From: Escherichia phage vB_Eco_Lzu_P1
Length of the DNA: 44,712 nucleotides
Sequence record: PQ295795
Reading direction: 5' to 3' (one strand)
The position numbers and the translations under genes are program-made. The notes beneath the pieces were generated by a model that saw only the letters and a list, made by a program, of their open reading frames with translations, was not told where the DNA came from and ran no database searches. Numbering within the stretch: position 1 is the first letter of the stretch; every line of letters starts with the position of its first letter. Below are positions 1 to 44,712 of the stretch, piece by piece.

Positions 1-127
1 AATGCAAACAGCCAGATTAACGCGGTCCAGGTGGTATCAGATACGTCTCCTGTTTGCAACAGTCCGATAATACAGACCATTGCCGTTAACAGATACAGCA
101 CCCGGCCGAAAATGCCATCCCGGACGG
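1..127. repeat. Terminal overlap, copy 1 (identical to 44586..44712)
   Basis: Direct reading: bases 1-127 equal 44586-44712 base for base; a minus-strand ORF runs through it without a stop. Confidence 0.9.
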
Positions 128-821: not shown

Positions 822-942
822 CGAATTGCCCCTTCCGGTTTGCCAATATGGCGCGCCCATGCACGCGCCACGAAGTAATTGCGAAATACCCGACCGCCTA
901 TCTCGAAGCGGTTATGCTGAAGCATATCACGGATCGTCGCAC

Positions 943-1560
943 TCATTTCAGAATCACCGAGCGCGGGTCGATGGCGTTCATGCTGCCGTCTCGTTCCACC
1001 CGGATGAATCCAACGCCATATTCCTGCGCATGGCGCTGTGCATTCGTCACGGCGTCAAAGCGATTGACTATTTGGCGTACTGCGTTGCCCATCTTCGCCT
1101 GCACCTGGTGGGAGTCGTAGGTTGCGTAGGCGGGCTGCGACTTGCGGAACTCCACACGCGTCTTCTGCGCCACGTCACGCGTTACTCGGTTAACTGCGTC
1201 CGCTATGGCGCTCGCTCGCTCATGTGGCTGGCGGTCCCGAAGGTGGTATTTCCGGCCTACTCGCTCGTAGTTGACAAGGCCGAAGTAAGTCATACCGGCG
1301 ACGCCATCCTTGCGGGATTGCATACGCAGGCCATGAAGCCCGACATACTCGACGACCCACATACTGCCGTCGCGAATATCACGCAGCACATCGCCGCGCT
1401 CGATATCATGCGTGAGGATTTCGCATTCCTCCGGCAGCTTGTCTTTCTTCGCCCACCACACCCGATTTCCTGCCGCGTTTTGCAAGCGGACGTGTGCTGC
1501 CAGGGTCTGTATTGGCTTCAGGATTTTGCCGTCTGATTTGCGGCGGAATAGTAATTTCAT
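943..1560 (-). CDS. Hypothetical protein (205 aa)
   Basis: ORF track; strong RBS AAGGAG 8 nt upstream of ATG; same-strand operon context. Confidence 0.6.
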   Translation of the reverse strand: MKLLFRRKSDGKILKPIQTLAAHVRLQNAAGNRVWWAKKDKLPEECEILTHDIERGDVLRDIRDGSMWVVEYVGLHGLRMQSRKDGVAGMTYFGLVNYERVGRKYHLRDRQPHERASAIADAVNRVTRDVAQKTRVEFRKSQPAYATYDSHQVQAKMGNAVRQIVNRFDAVTNAQRHAQEYGVGFIRVERDGSMNAIDPRSVILK

Positions 1561-1632
1561 TGCTCTGTCTCCTTAAAGTTTAACCGTGCCGCGGGGGAGT
1601 GTAATGTTTTGCTAATCGATGCTTTCATAATC

Positions 1633-1869
1633 TTACCTCCTGTACCTGTACATGTTGTCGCCCTCTGCGGCTAGTGGTGACCATTTCGCCCATACAGGCA
1701 CGTCGCGCATACGCGCGCAAAGTTCCTCGGTAGTGTAGTCGTCGATCTCCTCAATTTCTTCGATAGTTTTCGTGTCGCCATCGCACACAGTAGCGATGCC
1801 GTTTTGTTCGTAGTCAAGTACGCACATATGCAGGTAGATATACTCCTGCGAGAATCCGCCTATCATCAT
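1633..1869 (-). CDS. Small protein whose C-terminal half is a diverged copy of the DNA polymerase C-terminus (catalytic residues not conserved)
   Basis: ...DDYTTEELCARMRDVPVWAKWSPLAAEGDNMYRYRR here versus ...DDYTTEELCALMCDLPVWAKGFPLAAEGDIMYRYRK at the end of the 9900..12191 polymerase; nucleotide identity roughly 80 percent over about 110 bp; ATGA overlap with the upstream ORF. Confidence 0.5.
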   Translation of the reverse strand: MMIGGFSQEYIYLHMCVLDYEQNGIATVCDGDTKTIEEIEEIDDYTTEELCARMRDVPVWAKWSPLAAEGDNMYRYRR

Positions 1870-2135
1870 TTGCGCAGTCTCCAGTGTTTGCCTGCCCGCC
1901 CGACTGCGGGCTTCCGGCGTAATGTAATACGGATTCCCATTGGTTGCAAGGAAGTCCGCACCCTGAAATCGTGTTTTGCTGCGAACTGGTGCAAGTAGCG
2001 TGTCTGCGTCAACGGCTTCACATCGTCGCGATAGCTCCAGAACACAGAATCGCCCTCAGTCGCATTCTTAGCCCATATGCGTATGCAATGCAGCGGAATA
2101 TGCCACGAAAGCTGTTTAGCTCGTCTGCGGACCAT
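1866..2135 (-). CDS. Hypothetical basic protein (89 aa)
   Basis: ORF track; AAGGGG RBS; tight packing between flanking minus-strand ORFs; composition somewhat atypical. Confidence 0.35.
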   Translation of the reverse strand: MVRRRAKQLSWHIPLHCIRIWAKNATEGDSVFWSYRDDVKPLTQTRYLHQFAAKHDFRVRTSLQPMGIRITLRRKPAVGRAGKHWRLRK

Positions 2136-2144
2136 TTTGGCCCC

Positions 2145-2450
2145 TTATTTCGCAAGCTGGGCAAATAGTTCGCGCTGTGCTTTAATCCGGGCGACGTTTG
2201 TCACTGCCGTCTCACCGATCCCGAAGCGATACGCCAGGCGCTCGCGGGAGAATGCCTGCGCGTATGCATGGATGGCCTTACGCAACGGCCTCAGTTCGTC
2301 CATGCTGGCGCCCATACCGTAAAGCGCGCTGCGAAGTGATTGATGCGCCAGTATCGCGACCTGAAGCGCCGAGTCTACGTTGCCGTTTAGTGCCTTCGCT
2401 TCGTCCAGCTTTGCCACGGCCAGGGAGTAATTCCAGATAATCGCTTTCAT
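2145..2450 (-). CDS. Hypothetical protein with possible helix-turn-helix (101 aa)
   Basis: ORF track; segment FGIGETAVTNVARIKAQ resembles an HTH; ATGA overlap with the upstream ORF. Confidence 0.45.
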   Translation of the reverse strand: MKAIIWNYSLAVAKLDEAKALNGNVDSALQVAILAHQSLRSALYGMGASMDELRPLRKAIHAYAQAFSRERLAYRFGIGETAVTNVARIKAQRELFAQLAK

Positions 2451-2626
2451 AGTTCCGTAACCCTCTCAACCAGTTTATGCCCTAAACGATAGCTGTCGCC
2501 CCAAAGTAGCAGGCCCATAAATTCATCGATGCTAAACGCTCGCTTGCACACAGTGCGAAGCTCCCCGTTGTGGACTACCGTATCGCCGATCTTGATTTCG
2601 TGCTTATCAACCATTTCGGTTTTCAT
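2447..2626 (-). CDS. Hypothetical small protein (59 aa)
   Basis: ATG at 2626 preceded by AGGAGGG RBS; ORF track extends to 2686 but no RBS there. Confidence 0.45.
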   Translation of the reverse strand: MKTEMVDKHEIKIGDTVVHNGELRTVCKRAFSIDEFMGLLLWGDSYRLGHKLVERVTEL

Positions 2627-2646
2627 GTTCCGCCCTCCTATTGGTG

Positions 2647-2690
2647 TGCAACCAATATAGCAGGGTGCTGGGGTGGATGCAACCAATATT
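2647..2690 (-). promoter_or_regulatory. Sigma70-like promoter (minus strand) built from two direct copies of the ATATTGGTTGCA motif
   Basis: Minus strand: TTGCAT - 17 nt - TATATT, second motif copy ending about 20 nt before the RBS of the 2626 gene. Confidence 0.5.
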
Positions 2691-2841
2691 AATCACGCGC
2701 ATGAAAAAGTCGATCGCTATCCGTTGCAACTGCAAACTGCATTTTTCACACCCCATTCAGCAACTCGCATTGGTTGCCTAGTTCAGTGACGACCGCAATC
2801 CGCAACATGCTGCCGTGTATTTTGCAATCCCGGATTTTATG

Positions 2842-3012
2842 CAGTCTCAGACGAGGGGGGCCATTGACCCCCGTCTAGTCTGAAAGACTGGGCTTTGTCC
2901 CGCCTGTCCCGCTCCCCTCCAGGCCGCGTCATCTGTGGGCGGGACGGGGTGCTGTCCCGCTTTGTCCCGCCTCCTGTTTGTCCCGCTTTTTGTCCCGCTT
3001 ACTTTATGCAGT
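2842..3012. repeat. Non-coding hairpin plus GTCCCGC iteron element, copy A
   Basis: 2842-2911 identical to 30662-30731 (70 bp); imperfect hairpin AGACGAGGGGGG-ccattga-CCCCCGTCT; at least six direct TGTCCCGC units plus one inverted; ends with TTTATGCAG as in copy B. Confidence 0.85.
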
Positions 3013-3104
3013 TTTATTGCATAACTATGCATTATATTCACACTACACGGCAACCAATGTGACCAGATAAAAACGCTCAAAATGGAAACCAATGCGCGCA
3101 AAAT

Positions 3105-5369
3105 TTAATCGTTCAGGTCGTCATCGGTCGCCGAAAGCGTGATGGGGATATCCGATTTGATGACTAAATTCGACGACCCATATATGGCCCCGGTGTGCGG
3201 ATCTGTATAGAAACCGATCACGCCGCGCTCAACCATATCGTCGATTGCCTTCGTCGAAGTGCCCCCCTTCGCGAGTCCTGCCTGGCGGACTATTGCCGAT
3301 TTACTGAAACCAGTATGGTCCGGGTTATCTTCCATCAGTTTTTCCAGGGCCGCGTAAAGTACCTTTTCTTTTTCGGTGCGCGGTCCGGCGGTGTTCTCAT
3401 CCTTAACTGCGGCTTTTCCTGCGGCCTTCGCCTGTTCTATAGCGAACGGTGCCAGGGCGACCGGTACGAGGTATAAAGTCTCGTCGCGCGGGGTGGACGC
3501 AATTGGTTTGACGTCCCAACCAGCAACTACGTCACCGAAGTCTGGCCCGGTGCTGGTGGACTGGTGCGACGCGAACGCTTCTGACTTGCGGAGATCTACC
3601 GCCACCTTGCACTTGAGCAGGACGAAGCCACGCGGCGCTTGCTTGATGCCGTTACGTGACTTTTCGTGATACAGGTTAAGTTGTCCCGGCTGGTTGTCGT
3701 CCGGCTGTTCCAGGAAGAAAGCTGAATCGACAGCGCCATGCAGTGCGCCGGATCCGCGTGGGGTTCTGCTGCCGTTTGCACCCTTCGCCGGGTGGTGGAT
3801 GACGCCCGCACTGCCACCTGTGTTTTCCGCAATGGCCTTCAGCGCTTTGACCACTTCACCCATATCGCTGGCGTTGTTCTCGTCAAACGGTTTAGCATCG
3901 GCGGACCGCAGCGCAACAGTCTGGTTGAGTGAGTCGAACGCCACCAGGCCAACAGGTTCGCCGTTAGCGGTGCGGTTGATAAAGCTGATAACTTCGCGCA
4001 AACCGGACTTGCTGGTGATATCCCAGCCGCGAGACTGCAGGTCGATAATGTGCAGCTTGTCCAGGTCGTGCTCGTATTTAATCTGCAATGCTTCTTTGCG
4101 CTGGTTGGAGGCTTCGCCGCCTTCCGCGTCGAAATAGAAGCAATGAGACTGGACGACCTTCGCACCGCCAAACGGGATACCCGCGGCAACCGCGCCCATT
4201 TGGCCCAGCACATAGAAAGACTTACCGATATTCGACTCACCAGCCATATACCAGGTTGATTTAAAGTTAATCAACCCCTCGATTATCGGGTCGTGCTTGC
4301 TGAACAGTGCGACCGGCTCGTTATCCAGATCCGCATCGGTGCACACGCCGTATTCTTCGCCGTCGCCAACCGCATCAACAATATGATCATATAAGGATTC
4401 TACTTCCTCGTCGTCCAGACCTGGCAGGATGGCGGCGATTTGCTTACGTGACATGTTGTGCGGCTCGACGTTCAGGTGGTCCGGTATCCCGATAAGACGT
4501 AGCGCCAGGTGCTGGTGTCTATTTAGCTCAGAGCAACACTCGTTGCCGGTGTGCATACACTTGAAACGGATCTCGCCATCCTTGACCATGATAGCCGTCG
4601 ACCCTTCGCCGCTGTGCAGATGTTCGTTCGGGCACGGCACTTCATAACCGCGACCGGAAGATAACTCCTCGAATCCTGCCTGGAAGCACCAGTCCAGAAT
4701 GCCGTCAGCCACTGCGTCGTCGCCCTGGGTAAGCTCACGGCGTACTTCCTCTTTCTCCACTCCCAGCTTGTCAGCCAGGCGAAGCAGACGACGCACACTG
4801 GCGCGCTTGCCGTAGTGACACTTAATAACAGACTGCTGGTGTGGTAGGTACATAAGACGGTTTGTGTCTTTCGTGCAGTCGTCGAAGTCCACATCAGACA
4901 GGCCCAGTTGGTCTAACAGCGCGTACTGGACGCGGCCCAGGTCTTCCGCCGGTACTGGTTTATCTGTGAGCACAAGGAAACGGGCGCAACGCGTGCCGCC
5001 TTTCAGCGGGTGGCGGTCGCCGGTGGTTGTGTGGAATACGTGCTCCAGCCCCGCGTCGATAAAAGCCTTACGGCAGCGGCGTAGGGTGCGAGTGTCGGTG
5101 CGGTCAATATCAAAGAACAGGATCGAGCGGTCCACCGCACTGGTCTTGCGGCGTAGGCCGTCACTGGTATATGCCACGATGCCATCGGCCTTACGCTTGC
5201 GGCGCGCATACTCGGCTTTATCTTCCGTCTTGTTGATATGCACCGAGGAGATTTCTTTCGCGTCATTGATAAATTCGAAAAATTCATCGGTGGTCATCTG
5301 GAAGTTTTCCGCCCTGGCTTTTTCGCCTTTTTTAGCGGGTCGTGTTACCGCGAATTTAATTAAGCTCAT
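3105..5369 (-). CDS. DNA primase-helicase (N-terminal primase-polymerase-like domain, RecA/DnaB-like ATPase with Walker A GESNIGKS)
   Basis: 754-aa ORF; Walker A GESNIGKS, cysteine/histidine cluster CPNEHLH...CMHTGNECC, acidic FFDIDRTD motif typical of primase-polymerase domains. Confidence 0.7.
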   Translation of the reverse strand: MSLIKFAVTRPAKKGEKARAENFQMTTDEFFEFINDAKEISSVHINKTEDKAEYARRKRKADGIVAYTSDGLRRKTSAVDRSILFFDIDRTDTRTLRRCRKAFIDAGLEHVFHTTTGDRHPLKGGTRCARFLVLTDKPVPAEDLGRVQYALLDQLGLSDVDFDDCTKDTNRLMYLPHQQSVIKCHYGKRASVRRLLRLADKLGVEKEEVRRELTQGDDAVADGILDWCFQAGFEELSSGRGYEVPCPNEHLHSGEGSTAIMVKDGEIRFKCMHTGNECCSELNRHQHLALRLIGIPDHLNVEPHNMSRKQIAAILPGLDDEEVESLYDHIVDAVGDGEEYGVCTDADLDNEPVALFSKHDPIIEGLINFKSTWYMAGESNIGKSFYVLGQMGAVAAGIPFGGAKVVQSHCFYFDAEGGEASNQRKEALQIKYEHDLDKLHIIDLQSRGWDITSKSGLREVISFINRTANGEPVGLVAFDSLNQTVALRSADAKPFDENNASDMGEVVKALKAIAENTGGSAGVIHHPAKGANGSRTPRGSGALHGAVDSAFFLEQPDDNQPGQLNLYHEKSRNGIKQAPRGFVLLKCKVAVDLRKSEAFASHQSTSTGPDFGDVVAGWDVKPIASTPRDETLYLVPVALAPFAIEQAKAAGKAAVKDENTAGPRTEKEKVLYAALEKLMEDNPDHTGFSKSAIVRQAGLAKGGTSTKAIDDMVERGVIGFYTDPHTGAIYGSSNLVIKSDIPITLSATDDDLND

Positions 5370-5379
5370 TGCCGTTGCC

Positions 5380-5709
5380 TTACTTCGAAGTTTTATTATT
5401 GCGTACCCAGGAGCGCACGGTGCTCTGATTAATTCCTGTCAACTCAGCGATCATTGCCCAGGATTTGCCCTCGGCGCGCAAACGGATAACCTGTTTTTTG
5501 TATTCTTCCATTTCGTCATTGTGCTTTTGCAGCTTGCTTGCTGCCGTGCCGTTGAGTAATTCCAGCTTCGCGGTAAGCTCCTTCTCAGCACGCGATAATC
5601 TGGACACTTCAAATAACAGAGTATCCACCGCATTTGTGTAATACCAGGATTTACCCGCTTCGCCGCGGATTGCATTAGATAACACTTCAATTGCTTCTTT
5701 GATATTCAT
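5380..5709 (-). CDS. Helix-turn-helix DNA-binding protein (putative transcription regulator)
   Basis: C-terminal GKSWAMIAELTGINQSTVRSWVRN is a classic HTH; first gene of the minus-strand block next to the divergent promoter region. Confidence 0.55.
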   Translation of the reverse strand: MNIKEAIEVLSNAIRGEAGKSWYYTNAVDTLLFEVSRLSRAEKELTAKLELLNGTAASKLQKHNDEMEEYKKQVIRLRAEGKSWAMIAELTGINQSTVRSWVRNNKTSK

Positions 5710-8829: not shown

Positions 8830-8894
8830 GGCAACCAAGCCGAACGGGGTGGCTCACAATAACCCCGATACATGTGAAAATGAGGAATTGGAAA

Positions 8895-9674
8895 ATGGCT
8901 AAAGTCAACCTGAAAAATGTGCGCGTATGTTTCCTGAATATTTGGGAACGTGATACCCCTAAACAGGCTGGGCAAAAACCGGCATACCGCGCCGTGATTC
9001 TTCTGGATAAAGAAGATCCGCAGGTGGACAAAGTGGAAGCGGCAGCGCGCGCAGCGCTCACCGTCAAGCTGAAATCCGAGAAGAATGCCGATAAGTGGAT
9101 GGACCGCCACTACGCCCAGGATTCTAAGGAATGCGCAGTCCGCGACGGTGACGAGCGCGACGAAGTAACCGAAGAATTCGAAGGCATGTTGTACATCAAC
9201 GCCAAATCGTTCAAGCAGCCAAACATTCAAACGTCACTCGGCGAGAAGCAGACTGAACAAGGTCTGACCGTAGAAGGCGACGAGATCGAAGGCCAGGAGA
9301 TCTACTCCGGTTGTTATTGCAACGTGTCACTGGATATTTGGGCGTGGAACAATACCAACGGCAAGGGACTCGGTGCTGGGCTTTTAGGTCTGCGCTTCCG
9401 TGATGACGGCGAAGCCTTCGGCGGTGGCGGATCTTCTTGCTCCGACGAAGACCTGGGCGACGATGACGAAAGCCCGCGCAAGTCCAAAAAGTCAAAACGT
9501 CGTGATGACGATGACGAAGATGACAAGCCGCGCAAGTCCAAAAAGTCCAAGCGCCGCGATGACGATGACGACGACGAAGATGAAAAACCTCGTAAACGTC
9601 GTAAGCCACGCGACGATGAAGATGAGGACGAAGACGACGAAGACGAAGCACCACGTAAACGTCGCCGTCGTTAA
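8895..9674 (+). CDS. Putative single-stranded DNA-binding protein with repetitive acidic/basic C-terminal tail
   Basis: ATG at 8895 with GAGGA RBS; N-terminal MAKVNLKNVRVCFLNIWE pattern and acidic tail resemble phage gp2.5-type SSBs; location next to exonuclease and polymerase. Confidence 0.4.
   Translation: MAKVNLKNVRVCFLNIWERDTPKQAGQKPAYRAVILLDKEDPQVDKVEAAARAALTVKLKSEKNADKWMDRHYAQDSKECAVRDGDERDEVTEEFEGMLYINAKSFKQPNIQTSLGEKQTEQGLTVEGDEIEGQEIYSGCYCNVSLDIWAWNNTNGKGLGAGLLGLRFRDDGEAFGGGGSSCSDEDLGDDDESPRKSKKSKRRDDDDEDDKPRKSKKSKRRDDDDDDEDEKPRKRRKPRDDEDEDEDDEDEAPRKRRRR
9474..9660 (+). repeat. Imperfect tandem repeat (about 57-bp unit, 2-3 copies) inside the SSB-like CDS
   Basis: ccgcgcaagtccaaaaagtc...gatgacgatgac repeated, encoding PRKSKKSKRRDDDDEDDK twice, then a degenerate third copy. 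Confidence 0.75.
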
Positions 9675-9732: not shown

Positions 9733-9903
9733 ATGCGCATTAAAGCCAGCGAAGTAAAAGTCGGAATGCGAGTATGGTCCAAGCTACTGGGGGAATATTT
9801 CACCGTTGCCGAGATTCGCAACAACGGCGAGGAGATAACACTTTCCGACGGTATCTTCTCCATGATCGGCAGCGCTGACGCCGTAGTGAGGATTAAGCAA
9901 TGA
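9733..9903 (+). CDS. Small protein (56 aa) translationally coupled to the DNA polymerase
   Basis: ATG at 9733, stop TGA overlaps polymerase ATG (ATGA); below the 60-aa track threshold; weak RBS. Confidence 0.35.
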   Translation: MRIKASEVKVGMRVWSKLLGEYFTVAEIRNNGEEITLSDGIFSMIGSADAVVRIKQ

Positions 9904-12191
9904 AAGACTTCGAACGCCTGTTTCTCGATACCGAGACATTTAGCGGGGTAGACCTGAAGAAAGTTGGCGCATACGCCTACGCAGAGCACCCAACCACCGA
10001 GATTATGATTTGCACCTACGCCATCGACGAGGGCCGCGTGCAGACATGGGATTGCACCGAGTCCCCCACAATGCCACGTGAACTGCGCAAGGCGCTCCGC
10101 CAGGTATCCCGCAAGAAAGCAAAAATCGTGATGGCTAACGGCCTCCTGTTTGACCGCCTGGTTATTCGCGAGAAGTGGGGCATTGACCTGCCAGTGTGCC
10201 AGATCGAAGACACCATGATTATGGCCTTCCGACACGCGCTGCCGGGTAGTCTCGACATGCAGTGCCAGGTGCTGGGCGTTGACGCAGAACACGCGAAGGA
10301 TAAGGCTGGCAAGGCGCTGATCAAACGATTCTGTAAGCCAACCCCTAAGACCTACAAAATCCGCCGCTACACCCGCGAGACTCACCCTGAAGAATGGGCT
10401 AAATTCCTGCGCTATGCCGCGCTGGATATCATCGCGATGAGGGAAGTCTATTGGCGCATACCGGACTGGGGTAATACGCCGAAGGAAGACGAAATCCTGC
10501 TTATTGACCAGTTGATTAACGACCGCGGCTTCTATGTGGACGTTGACCTGGCACGCGCTGCGATCAAAGCGGTACAGGCGCATAAGGAAGAATTAAAGGA
10601 AGAAGCCCGGGAGCGCTTCGGCGGTAAGCTAACCGGAAATGACTTCCTGCCAGCGCTGCGCGACCTCGCGCCTGCGTTCACAATCCACAACGCGCAGAAA
10701 TCCACGCTTAACGACCTGCTGGAAGATCCAGACTTCCCCGATGAAGGCAAAGTGCTTATCGAGATGCGCCTCGGAGCGTCATCAACGGCGTCGACTAAAT
10801 ACAATCCGCTCGTAAATGGTCTGTCTTCCGATGGTCGCCGCCGTGGGTGTCTTCAGTATGGTGGGGCAAAGCGCACGCTACGCTGGGCCGGTAAAGGCTT
10901 CCAGCCGCAAAACCTGGCGCGAGGCGAGTATAGCGACGACCACGAGGGGAAGATTAAGCGCCGTGAGGGCGAGAGCGATATATCCTTTTGGGTGCGGTCG
11001 CACATGCTCACCAACGGCATCAACTCCCTGTTACGCGGGACCGCACACTGGGCGTATGACATATCGAAGCTAACGGCCTCGACCGTTCGCGGGTGCATTA
11101 TTCCGGCGAAGGGCAAGAAGTTTGTCGTCGCGGACTACTCCAACGTGGAAGGGCGCGGCCTTGCCTGGATCGCTGGCGAGAAAACCGCGCTAATGGTGTT
11201 TAGGGCCGGTCGCGATATTTATTGTGAGACTGCCGGTAAGATGTTCGGCCTCGATCCGGAATACATTAAAGCCAACCGCAAAGACTTACGCCAGATTGGT
11301 AAGGCGTGTGAGTTGGGACTTGGCTATGGCGGCGGCGTGGCTGCGTTCTTGCAGTTCGCTAAAAACCTGGGCCTCGACCTTTATGCGATGGCTGACGTGA
11401 TGAAGGGCACATTCCCCGATCACATTTGGGCGGCGGCGAAACGTGGTTATGAGTATGCCCGCATTAACGAAGCGAAGCGCCCGCCGAAGCCGGGCAAGAA
11501 GGACGAGCGCCCGACTTACATACTGCCGAAAAACGTATGGCTTACGTGTGATGCGATTAAACGCATGTGGCGCGAGGCTCACCCGAAGACGGTAGCATTT
11601 TGGGCCGAGCTTGAGGACGCGGTGCTCTGCGCGATCCGCAATCCGGGCAAAGCGTACTGGGCTGGCGCGAACGTTCGCCCGGATGGTAAGAAAGCGCTCA
11701 AGATAGTCCGCACGAAGGCGAAGCATGACCCAACCTTCGACGAGGAGCGCGACGACCCGAACGCCGCTGGGTGGTGGTTGAAAATTGAGTTGCCGTCTGG
11801 GCGTATTATGAGTTACCCAGGCATTGCGCTGTCAGTGACGACCGAGATCGACGAAGACACCGGCAAGAAACGCACCAGCACCCGCATTAAATATCAGGGT
11901 GAGAATCAGACGACGCGCCAGTGGGGATTCCAGTACACCTACGGCGGCAAACTCACGGAAAACATCGTGCAGGCGCTGTGCCGCGATATCCTCGCATGGT
12001 CCATGCCGGGCGTTGAAGCTGCGGGGTATGAAATCGTCCTGTCAGTGCACGATGAACTGATAACCGAAGTGCCGGATACCGACGACTACACAACCGAGGA
12101 GTTGTGCGCGCTGATGTGCGACCTGCCGGTTTGGGCGAAAGGCTTCCCGCTTGCCGCGGAAGGCGACATTATGTACAGGTACAGAAAATGA
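9900..12191 (+). CDS. Family-A (Pol I-like) DNA polymerase with 3'-5' exonuclease domain
   Basis: 763 aa; Exo I motif LDTETF, motif A DYSNVEGR, motif B RQIGKACELGLGYGGG, motif C VHDEL. Confidence 0.9.
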   Translation: MKDFERLFLDTETFSGVDLKKVGAYAYAEHPTTEIMICTYAIDEGRVQTWDCTESPTMPRELRKALRQVSRKKAKIVMANGLLFDRLVIREKWGIDLPVCQIEDTMIMAFRHALPGSLDMQCQVLGVDAEHAKDKAGKALIKRFCKPTPKTYKIRRYTRETHPEEWAKFLRYAALDIIAMREVYWRIPDWGNTPKEDEILLIDQLINDRGFYVDVDLARAAIKAVQAHKEELKEEARERFGGKLTGNDFLPALRDLAPAFTIHNAQKSTLNDLLEDPDFPDEGKVLIEMRLGASSTASTKYNPLVNGLSSDGRRRGCLQYGGAKRTLRWAGKGFQPQNLARGEYSDDHEGKIKRREGESDISFWVRSHMLTNGINSLLRGTAHWAYDISKLTASTVRGCIIPAKGKKFVVADYSNVEGRGLAWIAGEKTALMVFRAGRDIYCETAGKMFGLDPEYIKANRKDLRQIGKACELGLGYGGGVAAFLQFAKNLGLDLYAMADVMKGTFPDHIWAAAKRGYEYARINEAKRPPKPGKKDERPTYILPKNVWLTCDAIKRMWREAHPKTVAFWAELEDAVLCAIRNPGKAYWAGANVRPDGKKALKIVRTKAKHDPTFDEERDDPNAAGWWLKIELPSGRIMSYPGIALSVTTEIDEDTGKKRTSTRIKYQGENQTTRQWGFQYTYGGKLTENIVQALCRDILAWSMPGVEAAGYEIVLSVHDELITEVPDTDDYTTEELCALMCDLPVWAKGFPLAAEGDIMYRYRK

Positions 12192-12469
12192 TGACACCAG
12201 AAGGCAAGATTCAAAGTCACCTTATGAAGCTGGTGAAAGCCGTCGGCGGATTCTGCCGAAAACTGGCATGGGAGGGGCGCGCAGGAGCGCCCGACCTCAT
12301 AATCATCATCAACGGCAAGATAGTTTTCGTCGAAGTGAAGCGCCCAGGCGGTAAACCTAAGCCGCACCAGGTACGAGAACATGAGCGAATGGCCTGCCGC
12401 GGTGCGGACGTTCGCGTCATCGACAACATAGCCGACTGTGATTTATTGGTTGCTGAATTGGTCGCGTAG
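12188..12469 (+). CDS. VRR-NUC domain nuclease
   Basis: ATG overlaps polymerase stop (ATGA); GAPDLIIIINGKIVFVEVKRPGGKPKPHQ matches the VRR-NUC D...E-V-K core. Confidence 0.6.
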   Translation: MMTPEGKIQSHLMKLVKAVGGFCRKLAWEGRAGAPDLIIIINGKIVFVEVKRPGGKPKPHQVREHERMACRGADVRVIDNIADCDLLVAELVA

Positions 12470-18013: not shown

Positions 18014-18589
18014 ATGTACGGCGAATACGAAATATCTGGTAAACAATTCCACCTGGCGGCAATGATCGCAAGCATAGAGTTTGACCAGTGGCGCTTAAAG
18101 TCTGACGCGTGCAAGCAAAGCCGTCTTGTCGGTGTGCTGGGCGAGATGTTTGCGGGCATGTACCTGGAAGGGCAGGCAGGCGGTCGAAGTTGTATCCCGC
18201 AAGGCTTACTAATGCGTACCGGCCTGTTTAGCGCTAATACTATCGACCGCGGCGATATTATCATGGTTGGCAAGCGCAAGGTTAAGTCCGGTCCTGACTT
18301 CCGCGAGCATACGATCGATGCCGTATGGACATACGAGGTTAAAGCCACCAGCGGCATCCGTCGCGGACTGGTAGAGGCACGTTGCGCTCGCGAGTATCTC
18401 ACTCGTCGGGTTGCCGGTGTTATTCTGGTGGGGGTGTCGTTCGGGCAGCATAGCGCCATCGGCGTGATTGAGGATATTGCGGAGCCATACGTGATAGTGA
18501 ACGATTGGCCCCTGGTGGAAGTGGAAGGAAAGGAATATTACGAAAGCCCGCTGGTTCGGCGCAAAATGGACTGGGAAAACTCAAACTAA
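18014..18589 (+). CDS. Hypothetical protein (191 aa), possible PD-(D/E)xK-like nuclease
   Basis: ORF track; AGGA RBS; segment DAVWTYEVKATSG resembles a D...E-x-K core, weak. Confidence 0.4.
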   Translation: MYGEYEISGKQFHLAAMIASIEFDQWRLKSDACKQSRLVGVLGEMFAGMYLEGQAGGRSCIPQGLLMRTGLFSANTIDRGDIIMVGKRKVKSGPDFREHTIDAVWTYEVKATSGIRRGLVEARCAREYLTRRVAGVILVGVSFGQHSAIGVIEDIAEPYVIVNDWPLVEVEGKEYYESPLVRRKMDWENSN

Positions 18590-18620
18590 AAAAGGGGCCG
18601 TATGGCCCCTTTTCTCATTT
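18588..18620. terminator. Bidirectional intrinsic terminator between convergent blocks
   Basis: AAAAAA-GGGGCC-gtat-GGCCCC-TTTTCTCATTT; A-tract on one side, T-tract on the other. Confidence 0.65.
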
Positions 18621-30591: not shown

Positions 30592-30661
30592 TTATGCAGT
30601 CCCCCCTTTTTATGCAGTTGCCGTCGGTCATTGTATCAGCGAATTTAAAACAAACCTTATT

Positions 30662-30975
30662 CAGTCTCAGACGAGGGGGGCCATTGACCCCCGTCTAGTC
30701 TGAAAGACTGGGCTTTGTCCCGCCTGTCCCGATCGGCTAAAACCCACGGCAGCACTGACGGGGACAGGGGTGCTGTCCCGCTTTGTCCCGCCTCATTCTG
30801 TCCCGCTTTCTGTCCCGTTTGTTTTATGCAGAAAAACCGCATAGCTATTCACTTTTAAGGGGCGGGACAGATCGGGACATCACCCCGTCCCGCTTTTAGT
30901 TTATGCAATGAAAGTGAGTATATATGCTGTTTAATGGTGGCGGGACAAAACGGGACGTCCCGCCTGTCCCGCTTC
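30662..30975. repeat. Non-coding hairpin plus GTCCCGC iteron element, copy B, with extra iteron cluster
   Basis: 30662-30731 identical to 2842-2911; about nine direct and several inverted (G)TCCCGC units; inserted between the GT chaperone stop and the tape-measure start. Confidence 0.85.
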
Positions 30976-30976
30976 G

Positions 30977-31653
30977 TTATGCGGGGTTCTGCCGCGCCAT
31001 TTCATCCAGCGCAACGCGTTCCATTAGCTTGATATCTTTAAACGCACGTTGCGCGTTTTCGATGCCGTGCATCTTAAATAACCATTCCAGTACGCCGTAG
31101 TCTATGCCGTATGCCCCGCCAAATCCGGTACGCCATTGCGTGGAGCAATCTGTGAAGACTGCGACTACCTTCGCGTTGTCGGGCCACAGCGCAACTGGTG
31201 GACACACGTCTTCAGGTGTCGCGCCCCATAAACTCGCGGCTAAATCTTCGGAGGGTGGCGGCGGGCCATAAAAGCGCCGCGCCGCCTCAATTAGTTTTTT
31301 TCACGCAACCCCATCAATTCGAGGTAGTACGACGTATGGAACACGCCGAACGCGCGCGGGTAGTTGACTACCAGGCGGCGGACGTTGGCGGCATTAAATT
31401 CGTCCGGCAAATTCCAGCCTTCAGCGACGTGCATGATGGCCTCGACCATAACGTTAAATCCTTCCGGGTCATTGTCGTCATACTCCGACAATTTGCGCTC
31501 AGTGTCCTGCATGGTCTGCGAAAATTCGTCGATAGGGCGGTGGCGCACGGTAAACGTCATTTTGCCCGGTTCGTTCTCACCAGGGCGCGGGATCTCAATC
31601 GGCAGCTTAAAGGTTGGTTTAGGGTCAAGTGTGAAGAGTGGTGCTTTAGCCAT
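30977..31653 (-). CDS. Tail assembly chaperone G-T fusion product (requires -1 ribosomal frameshift near 31294-31302)
   Basis: The -1 frame is open from the slippery site to 30977; downstream ORF lacks its own start context. Confidence 0.6.
31291..31653 (-). CDS. Tail assembly chaperone G
   Basis: ATG at 31653 with GGAGAA RBS; position between major tail and tape measure; ends in the slippery sequence. Confidence 0.65.
   Translation of the reverse strand: MAKAPLFTLDPKPTFKLPIEIPRPGENEPGKMTFTVRHRPIDEFSQTMQDTERKLSEYDDNDPEGFNVMVEAIMHVAEGWNLPDEFNAANVRRLVVNYPRAFGVFHTSYYLELMGLREKN
31294..31302 (-). other. Programmed -1 frameshift slippery site G-AAA-AAA-C
   Basis: Minus strand CGT GAA AAA AAC TAA at the end of G; A-AAA-AAC heptamer. 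Confidence 0.6.
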
Positions 31654-37358: not shown

Positions 37359-37360
37359 TG

Positions 37361-37392
37361 AAAAGGGGCCATTACGGCCCCTTAATTATTTG
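37361..37392. terminator. Bidirectional intrinsic terminator
   Basis: AAAA-GGGGCC-attac-GGCCCC-TTAATTATTT; overlaps the last codons of the o-spanin gene. Confidence 0.6.
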
Positions 37393-44547: not shown

Positions 44548-44712
44548 GTTTTACCCCATTCAAAACAGCATTACGCAGTGTGCGCAATGCAAACAGCCAG
44601 ATTAACGCGGTCCAGGTGGTATCAGATACGTCTCCTGTTTGCAACAGTCCGATAATACAGACCATTGCCGTTAACAGATACAGCACCCGGCCGAAAATGC
44701 CATCCCGGACGG
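44534..44712 (-). CDS. Small holin/antiholin-like membrane protein, C-terminal part (5' end beyond window; same gene as 1..194)
   Basis: Continuation of the ORF starting at 194 through the repeated end; stop TGA at 44534-44536 overlaps the endolysin start by 14 nt. Confidence 0.5.
   Translation of the reverse strand, partial: VRDGIFGRVLYLLTAMVCIIGLLQTGDVSDTTWTALIWLFALRTLRNAVLNGVKHAIQ
44586..44712. repeat. Terminal overlap, copy 2 (identical to 1..127)
   Basis: Direct reading. Confidence 0.9.

Follow-up and report, generated by a model that had tools for sequence, protein, structure and literature searches.

The 78-aa open reading frame (ORF) at 1633..1869 (minus strand) of Escherichia phage vB_Eco_Lzu_P1 (PQ295795) is a chimera, in which a conserved small gene of unrelated ancestry is continued in frame by a polymerase-derived tail, and not a decayed copy of the polymerase C-terminal domain. 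It is probably a gene-fusion scar, that is, an ordinary recombination remnant in the course of decay. The window (the whole stretch of DNA analysed, 44,712 nt) is a complete Dhillonvirus genome (an HK578/SSL-2009a-like E. coli siphophage), the first 6 kb of which match ~180 phage records at 89–95% identity.

The initial annotation had assigned 78 residues to this ORF, correctly, and had described its last part as near-identical to the C-terminus of the polymerase. This similarity is real, if slightly overstated: the last 36 residues (DDYTTEELCARMRDVPVWAKWSPLAAEGDNMYRYRR) give an ungapped alignment with residues 728–763 of the polymerase (DDYTTEELCALMCDLPVWAKGFPLAAEGDIMYRYRK), with 29 of 36 positions identical (BLASTP, E 8e-19), and the match does not lie in low-complexity sequence. 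The corresponding DNA forms an inverted repeat with arms of 111 nt (1640–1750 and 12074–12184) that are 80% complementary, and the genome has no other long inverted repeat of this kind; as 111-nt coding tails, the patch and the window's own polymerase are 78% identical. The second arm lies in the 3' end of the resident polymerase gene (12074..12191, plus strand; residues ~726–763 and the stop codon, which overlaps the start of the VRR-NUC gene). That gene (9900..12191, plus strand) encodes a full-length family A DNA polymerase of 763 aa, which is intact and independent of the patch and carries the motif C residues HDE at 717–719. The copied stretch starts at residue 728, nine residues after HDE. 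When the phage polymerase was compared with solved structures (phmmer), motif C of Klentaq aligned to polymerase residues 700–728, beyond which 35 residues remain in the phage polymerase and 37 in Klentaq; thus, the copied piece takes in the entire sequence C-terminal to motif C. This segment forms the last helix and strands of the palm in family A polymerases, rather than a free interaction tail.

For the residues that precede the tail, the initial annotation had proposed a loose alignment to the motif C region with the catalytic HDE replaced by DTK, which would make the whole ORF a degenerate copy of the ~80 C-terminal residues of the polymerase. This is very improbable. The BLASTP alignment does extend over residues 4–78, and a DNA polymerase profile (phrog_7766) aligns to residues 13–78 (E 3e-8), but the tail alone carries the extension: when the N-terminus was aligned locally to the motif C region, the score (21) was close to the mean for shuffled sequences (20.8), and 47% of these did equally well or better (p 0.47). 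Because this score is no better than that of shuffled sequence, the replacement of HDE by DTK is an artefact, caused by BLAST extending the strong tail match. There is also a sharp drop in nucleotide identity at the GACGACTAC junction. The shuffle test, together with the tblastn search and the PHROG scan described below, ruled out homology of the N-terminus to motif C, and the notion of a duplicated polymerase C-terminus is wrong for residues 1–42.

These residues (codons 1–42; 1744..1869, minus strand) are instead a homologue of a 44–50-aa Dhillonvirus small gene, phrog_15977, with the invariant core ATVCDGD. They match phrog_15977 with an E of 1.3e-23 over profile positions 4–45 of 47, and the short form by itself has phrog_15977 as its sole PHROG match and matches no polymerase family. 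Short-form members include Over9000 gp56 (44 aa), SSL-2009a orf57 (47 aa), and HK578 gp51, which end in ...EEIEETEQ with a TGA that overlaps the ATG of the next gene. When 1561–1869 was searched against phage records (blastn), it resolved into two unrelated parts: 1746–1869 (the first ~41 codons) matches, at 90–95%, the small gene that occupies this slot in many Dhillonviruses, and 1607–1750 matches, at 80–85%, the polymerase 3' end and the beginning of the following gene in essentially every Dhillonvirus. Residues 1–41 (tblastn) match 104 phage records at one place each, with the small-gene locus as that place in every match listed, and in none of the 104 is there a second place, such as the polymerase gene. 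The slot itself lies between genes of phrog_12533 and phrog_10243, with the same neighbours in SSL-2009a, Over9000, HK578, and slur05; it is empty in Sodalis phage SO-1. The ORF therefore resembles the 47-aa phrog_15977 family in profile match, locus, and neighbours, and differs from it at the C-terminus, where 36 residues derived from the polymerase stand in place of the final TEQ; the family's C-terminal end (...EETEQ/L, with a stop codon overlapping the next start) is absent.

The overlapping start and stop codons that had been taken as a sign of tight packing are present at one end only. The ATG overlaps the TGA of the upstream gene (1866..2135) in an ATGA at 1866–1869, but the stop codon is followed by a gap of 72 nt (1561–1632) before the next gene, whereas in short-form relatives it overlaps the next start. 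This downstream gene (943..1560, minus strand) encodes a 205-aa protein of unknown function (phrog_10243), and its start is coupled to the stop of the small gene in those relatives.

The chimeric product resembles a family A DNA polymerase (PF00476) only in residues 43–78, which are homologous to residues 728–763 of the phage enzyme and correspond to the last ~37 residues of Klentaq. None of motifs A, B, and C and none of the catalytic residues occurs in the 78-aa ORF, and it matches no Pfam family, whereas the resident polymerase matches PF00476 at 60.3 bits; thus, it cannot be a polymerase. Pfam and NCBIfam scans of the ORF and its neighbours likewise found no family, a search of solved-structure sequences with the ORF returned only a chance match (E 1.1), and a single-chain AlphaFold2 model is unconfident (pLDDT 48 overall, and <50 for residues 44–72). 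The identical protein (100%) is nevertheless named "DNA polymerase I" in the UniRef entry for vB_Eco_Lzu_P1, an annotation error caused by the polymerase-derived tail. The ORF might also be compared with split or truncated polymerase fragments, as the tail aligns to the extreme C-terminus of the 186-aa phrog_7766 profile (up to position 185) at the E-value given above; however, only ~36 residues of the ORF are truly homologous, and with a full-length, intact polymerase already encoded in the genome, nothing indicates that the ORF complements or joins a split polymerase.

Compared with the short-form genomes of Over9000, HK578, and SSL-2009a, the window and all other long-form loci contain an extra block of ~185 nt, which replaces the codons for TEQ and the stop. 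The block lies between GAGGAGA and AAGGAGA-CAGAGCAATG, so that a 6-nt direct repeat, AGGAGA, is found on both sides. The left copy (1746..1751, minus strand) is equivalent to the GAGGAGA at the EEIEE|TEQ boundary of the short forms, and the right copy (1568..1573, minus strand) is also part of the Shine-Dalgarno sequence (AAGGAG) of the 205-aa gene. Within the block, the polymerase-derived patch (1607..1750, minus strand) is in inverted orientation and comprises the last 36 polymerase codons and stop (1633–1743 in the window), a GATT spacer, and the ATG and first ~22 nt of a 63-aa gene (ATGAAAGCA...). Homology to polymerase loci thus runs on past the polymerase stop into TAAGATTATGAAAGCA, the start of the 63-aa gene, as would be expected of a copy made at the DNA level and not of selection on a peptide. 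In 011D5, rolling, JLBYU37, and slur05, the 63-aa gene separates the polymerase gene from the VRR-NUC gene. It is absent beside the polymerase of the window, where the polymerase stop overlaps the VRR-NUC start (AAAATGATGACACC; 12170–12215), and the only trace of its start in this genome is inside the patch (~1607–1628). Because the window's own polymerase locus lacks this gene, the template for the patch was a polymerase locus of the other type, or the copying predates the loss of the gene.

The distal 46 nt of the insertion (1561..1606, minus strand) are not structured as RNA; neither the 63-aa gene nor any other part of the window matches them significantly, and in the phage database they match only the long-form phages. 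The copied ATG of the 63-aa gene, which lies 4 nt beyond the TAA of the chimeric ORF, opens a mini-ORF of 23 codons (1557..1628, minus strand; MKASISKTLHSPAARLNFKETEQ and a stop). This mini-ORF ends at the original ETEQ stop of the small gene, overlapping the ATG of 943..1560. Its frame is open in all eight long-form loci, two of which have a 3-nt indel among them.

From this anatomy, the most plausible course of events can be outlined. An ancestral small gene of the phrog_15977 type (~44–50 aa) would have ended in ...EEIEETEQ, with its TGA overlapping the next ATG. In one ancestral lineage, a segment of ~185 nt would then have been placed in the last codons, between the two AGGAGA microhomologies, with the first ~140 nt copied in inverted orientation from the junction of a Dhillonvirus polymerase gene and the 63-aa gene. 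The copy would have landed in frame, so that translation of the small gene continues across 36 polymerase codons and terminates at the stop codon of the polymerase. To judge from the junctions, the event was probably microhomology-mediated illegitimate recombination or a replication template switch. Translation of the downstream gene was probably kept by the duplicated Shine-Dalgarno sequence (AAGGAG) and/or by the 23-codon ORF acting as a relay. Any activity of the protein would reside in the N-terminal module, with the polymerase tail as a tolerated passenger.

Mosaicism by illegitimate recombination in tailed phages is described by the Hendrix/Hatfull model. The chimeric ORF shares with the mosaic junctions and gene-fragment scars of tailed phages a sharp joint at a microhomology of a few bases, the location of an essential-gene fragment in an accessory region, presence/absence polymorphism among close relatives, and relaxed constraint on the fragment. 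It differs in that the fragment is in frame and extends a conserved small gene, which explains its annotation as a protein and, in UniRef, as "DNA polymerase I". Template switching of the FoSTeS/MMBIR type is mediated by microhomology and gives inverted duplications. Here too a short segment has been copied inverted from ~10 kb away, and both junctions fall in 5–6-nt microhomology (AGGAGA; the insertion-site GGAGA resembles GGATA of the polymerase); unlike such events, 46 nt at one end have no identifiable template, and the mechanism would be deduced from the junctions only. A publication on DNA polymerase swapping mentions neither polymerase remnants nor Dhillonvirus (PMC11348598).

Exon duplications associated with homing endonucleases, introns, or inteins also place a duplicated polymerase-gene fragment away from the polymerase, and some Dhillonviruses have an intein-containing polymerase and small HNH genes near it. 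In contrast to those cases, neither the window nor any of the eight long-form loci has an endonuclease gene, an intron, or an intein within or beside the patch. Escherichia phage vB_EcoD_Pubbukkers is annotated with an intein-containing DNA polymerase, and the window polymerase has no intein and the usual length of 763 aa; with an intein-containing polymerase in at least one Dhillonvirus, the polymerase gene of the genus is a target for mobile elements.

The patch might alternatively matter as DNA or RNA, either as one arm of an inverted repeat that inverts the ~10.3-kb replication module, or as a promoter, terminator, or RNA structure. The arms do constitute the sole inverted repeat of ~110 nt in the genome and bracket the replication genes, but a cis-acting role is most unlikely. 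Gene order and orientation are the same in all four long-form genomes compared (the window, slur05, and two metagenomic genomes of 45 kb), with no inversion between the repeat arms in slur05 or the two metagenomic genomes. Efficient homologous recombination needs an exact match of roughly 25 bp, and the longest exact match between the arms, at 14 nt, is below this. The patch shares its sense with the polymerase mRNA and so offers no antisense pairing. There is no promoter-like site in 900–3200 and no terminator on the coding strand, and the intergenic RNA is less structured than its shuffled versions (z +1.67). The sequence comparisons show the patch to be too diverged to drive homologous inversion and not to have been homogenised with the resident polymerase.

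The small gene is present in ~100 phage records, but its chimeric long form is rare. Among GenBank phages, a full-length match across 1561–1869 is found only in slur05, slur06, and P-GXEC-L2P5 (blastn). A further seven long-form protein clusters (67–84 aa) come from metagenome assemblies; overall, the long form accounts for 8 of 34 protein clusters and one IMG/VR contig, and for none of the JGI metagenome contigs. A search with a patch-specific pattern likewise found no JGI metagenome contig, and in IMG/VR only slur05. The junction varies among long forms (EEIEEIDDYTT, EEIEDYTT, EEIDDYTT, and DELDEVDDYTT).

Seven patch copies were compared with polymerase tails (which do not include the polymerase tails of the two metagenomic long-form genomes). 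The copies have derived substitutions in common, and each is more like the other copies than like any polymerase, which points to one origin. They are 74–87% identical to any polymerase tail and differ among themselves by up to ~22–25%. The patch in the window is least similar to its own polymerase (78%) and more similar to those of JLBYU37, rolling, and IMG/VR (84%); we infer that there is no ongoing conversion from the resident polymerase, and gene conversion was ruled out on this ground. One IMG/VR polymerase allele is equal to the patch consensus over the first 42 nt, a match that carries no statistical weight because the allele was found by searching with that very 27-mer.

An insertion into the short form is favoured over the reverse polarity with reasonable but far from complete confidence. 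In the reverse case, which is possible although clearly the less probable of the two, the long form would be ancestral and the 44–50-aa short form would have arisen by slipped-strand deletion between the AGGAGA repeats, possibly repeatedly. An exact deletion between the two copies restores the short-form junction, GAGGAGACAGAGCAATGA; long and short forms both occur with both types of N-terminal allele (MMIGGF... and MTPMQITLMAGY...); and the divergence among patch copies implies that the patch is old. However, short forms are far more numerous and widespread, no short form with a different deletion endpoint has been seen, and the sharing of alleles is equally explained by the frequent homologous exchange typical of these phages. 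If deletion were the true polarity, the interpretation as a scar would hold, but the fusion would be older.

A different, unrelated C-terminal extension (...EELEDCEHDFGEFADDTNYDDYLVCRKCGAVKL) follows the same N-terminal module in one protein (P0023; 1201–1410 of L020, a Dhillonvirus-like contig), and the 3' end of the small gene therefore seems to be a recombination hot spot. One patch lineage (P0004, P0024, and P0007; loci L010 10001–10228, L012 10001–10246, and L017 365–568) carries a dense cluster of ~9 substitutions in ~20 nt, by which CCACTAGCCGCAGAGGGCGAC has become CCTCCCGCC[C/T][C/T]CTGCGGCGGC. The replacement of GCAGAG by its near reverse complement suggests a quasi-palindrome template-switch mutation.

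Rates of substitution separate the two modules of the fusion from the polymerase itself. For real polymerase tails, the protein is identical but for one V/I position and dN/dS is 0.05; the N-terminal module has a dN/dS of 0.23–0.28, and the patch tails have 0.56–0.65, although over 36 codons a value of ~0.6 is indistinguishable both from 1 and from 0.3. Some tails have drifted as far as PPVWAKGLPPAFCGGNMNRYRK, LAAEGDNMY has become PAFCGGNMN in one lineage, and eight codons are deleted in frame in the tail of P0007; DYTTEELCA and PVWAK are unchanged in most patch copies. As judged from these alignments, the tail appears to have evolved since the fusion with little or no constraint at the protein level. 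The reading of the ORF as a decaying recombination remnant, one of two offered by the initial annotation, fits these observations: a sharp junction with microhomology, a copied stop codon plus ~22 nt, a rare and polymorphic long form, and a dN/dS ~10-fold that of the polymerase.

The other reading offered was a small protein that mimics a C-terminal interaction tail of the polymerase. In its broader form, the ORF would be a functional neo-protein whose tail docks on the polymerase palm or on a partner, as a regulator or dominant-negative, or that acts as a decoy for a host defence that senses the polymerase. This is improbable, although several features are in its favour. The tail frame is open to the original polymerase stop in all eight long-form clusters, with observed indels in multiples of three, and under a neutral star-tree simulation the probability that all seven tails stay free of stop codons is ~0.06, a conservative value in that it counts shared changes double; weak selection may keep the tail open, but these alignments do not demonstrate it. 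The start codon is also translationally coupled to the upstream gene. As for expression, proteomics of the Dhillonvirus EE09 detected only four phage proteins in infected cells and is uninformative on the ORF (PMC10673088).

Against a functional tail stands its dN/dS, about ten times that of the polymerase, as well as the stretches rewritten in some lineages, the eight codons lost in P0007, the rarity of the long form, and the unconfident AlphaFold2 model. Mimicry of an interaction tail in particular is unsupported, as the copied segment belongs to the palm core after motif C rather than to an exposed tail, and its sequence drifts between lineages. The Dhillonvirus polymerase does trigger the Borvo defence system, but the escape mutations (T13, E91, D176, and R171) map to the exonuclease cleft and not to the C-terminus (bioRxiv 10.1101/2022.08.27.505566), and the idea of a Borvo decoy was ruled out accordingly. 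An adaptive fusion, in which the last helix and strand of the palm let the small protein bind the phage polymerase or its recogniser, is similarly unlikely. If true, it would mean that replication is tuned, or that a host defence sensing the Dhillonvirus polymerase is blunted, and it would exemplify in nature how an accessory gene can acquire a function, as a new regulator or decoy of the phage, from a captured piece of an essential gene. Overall, we assign a functional tail a low probability, and retain the fusion scar as the probable explanation.

Several further features of the genome were noted. The ends of the window (1–127 and 44586–44712) are identical (100% over 127 nt), which corresponds to a whole genome of ~44,585 bp with an assembly overlap or terminal redundancy. 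Two repeat-rich regions, 2837–3031 and 30657–30997, contain GTCCCGC-type iterons and inverted repeats (families D3, D4, D6, I2, and I3) and correspond to the annotated "region A/B" of Sodalis phage SO-1, where the annotation mentions sequence similarity with region A; the iterons may be read as origin-like. Within the ORF 8874..9674 (plus strand), tandem repeats of 54 nt and 44 nt at 9459–9664 give a gp2.5-like ssDNA-binding protein a C-terminus in which acidic (D/E) and basic (KPRKRR) stretches alternate; the L010 homologue of this protein matches PF10991. A 109-aa protein (5380–5709, minus strand), named "transposase" in several relatives, has weak similarity to helix-turn-helix and sigma-70 region 4 domains (NCBIfam E 2e-4 to 8e-3, below cut-offs; weak Pfam HTH matches in L010), and is more likely to be a small DNA-binding regulator than a transposase. 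Two GC-rich hairpins (18582–18614 and 37360–37392; GGGGCC-loop-GGCCCC, with A/T runs on both sides), inverted relative to each other and 18.7 kb apart, look like putative bidirectional terminators.

For annotation, the consequence is that the UniRef name of this 78-aa product, "DNA polymerase I", is incorrect. The patch also preserves the start of the 63-aa gene that has since been lost beside the polymerase of this genome. As a fusion scar, the ORF would be a clean and datable case of DNA shuffling in phages, in which an inverted copy of part of an essential gene was made via a few bases of microhomology and fused in frame to an accessory gene, with the untouched form still present in related genomes and the copied fragment drifting afterwards.
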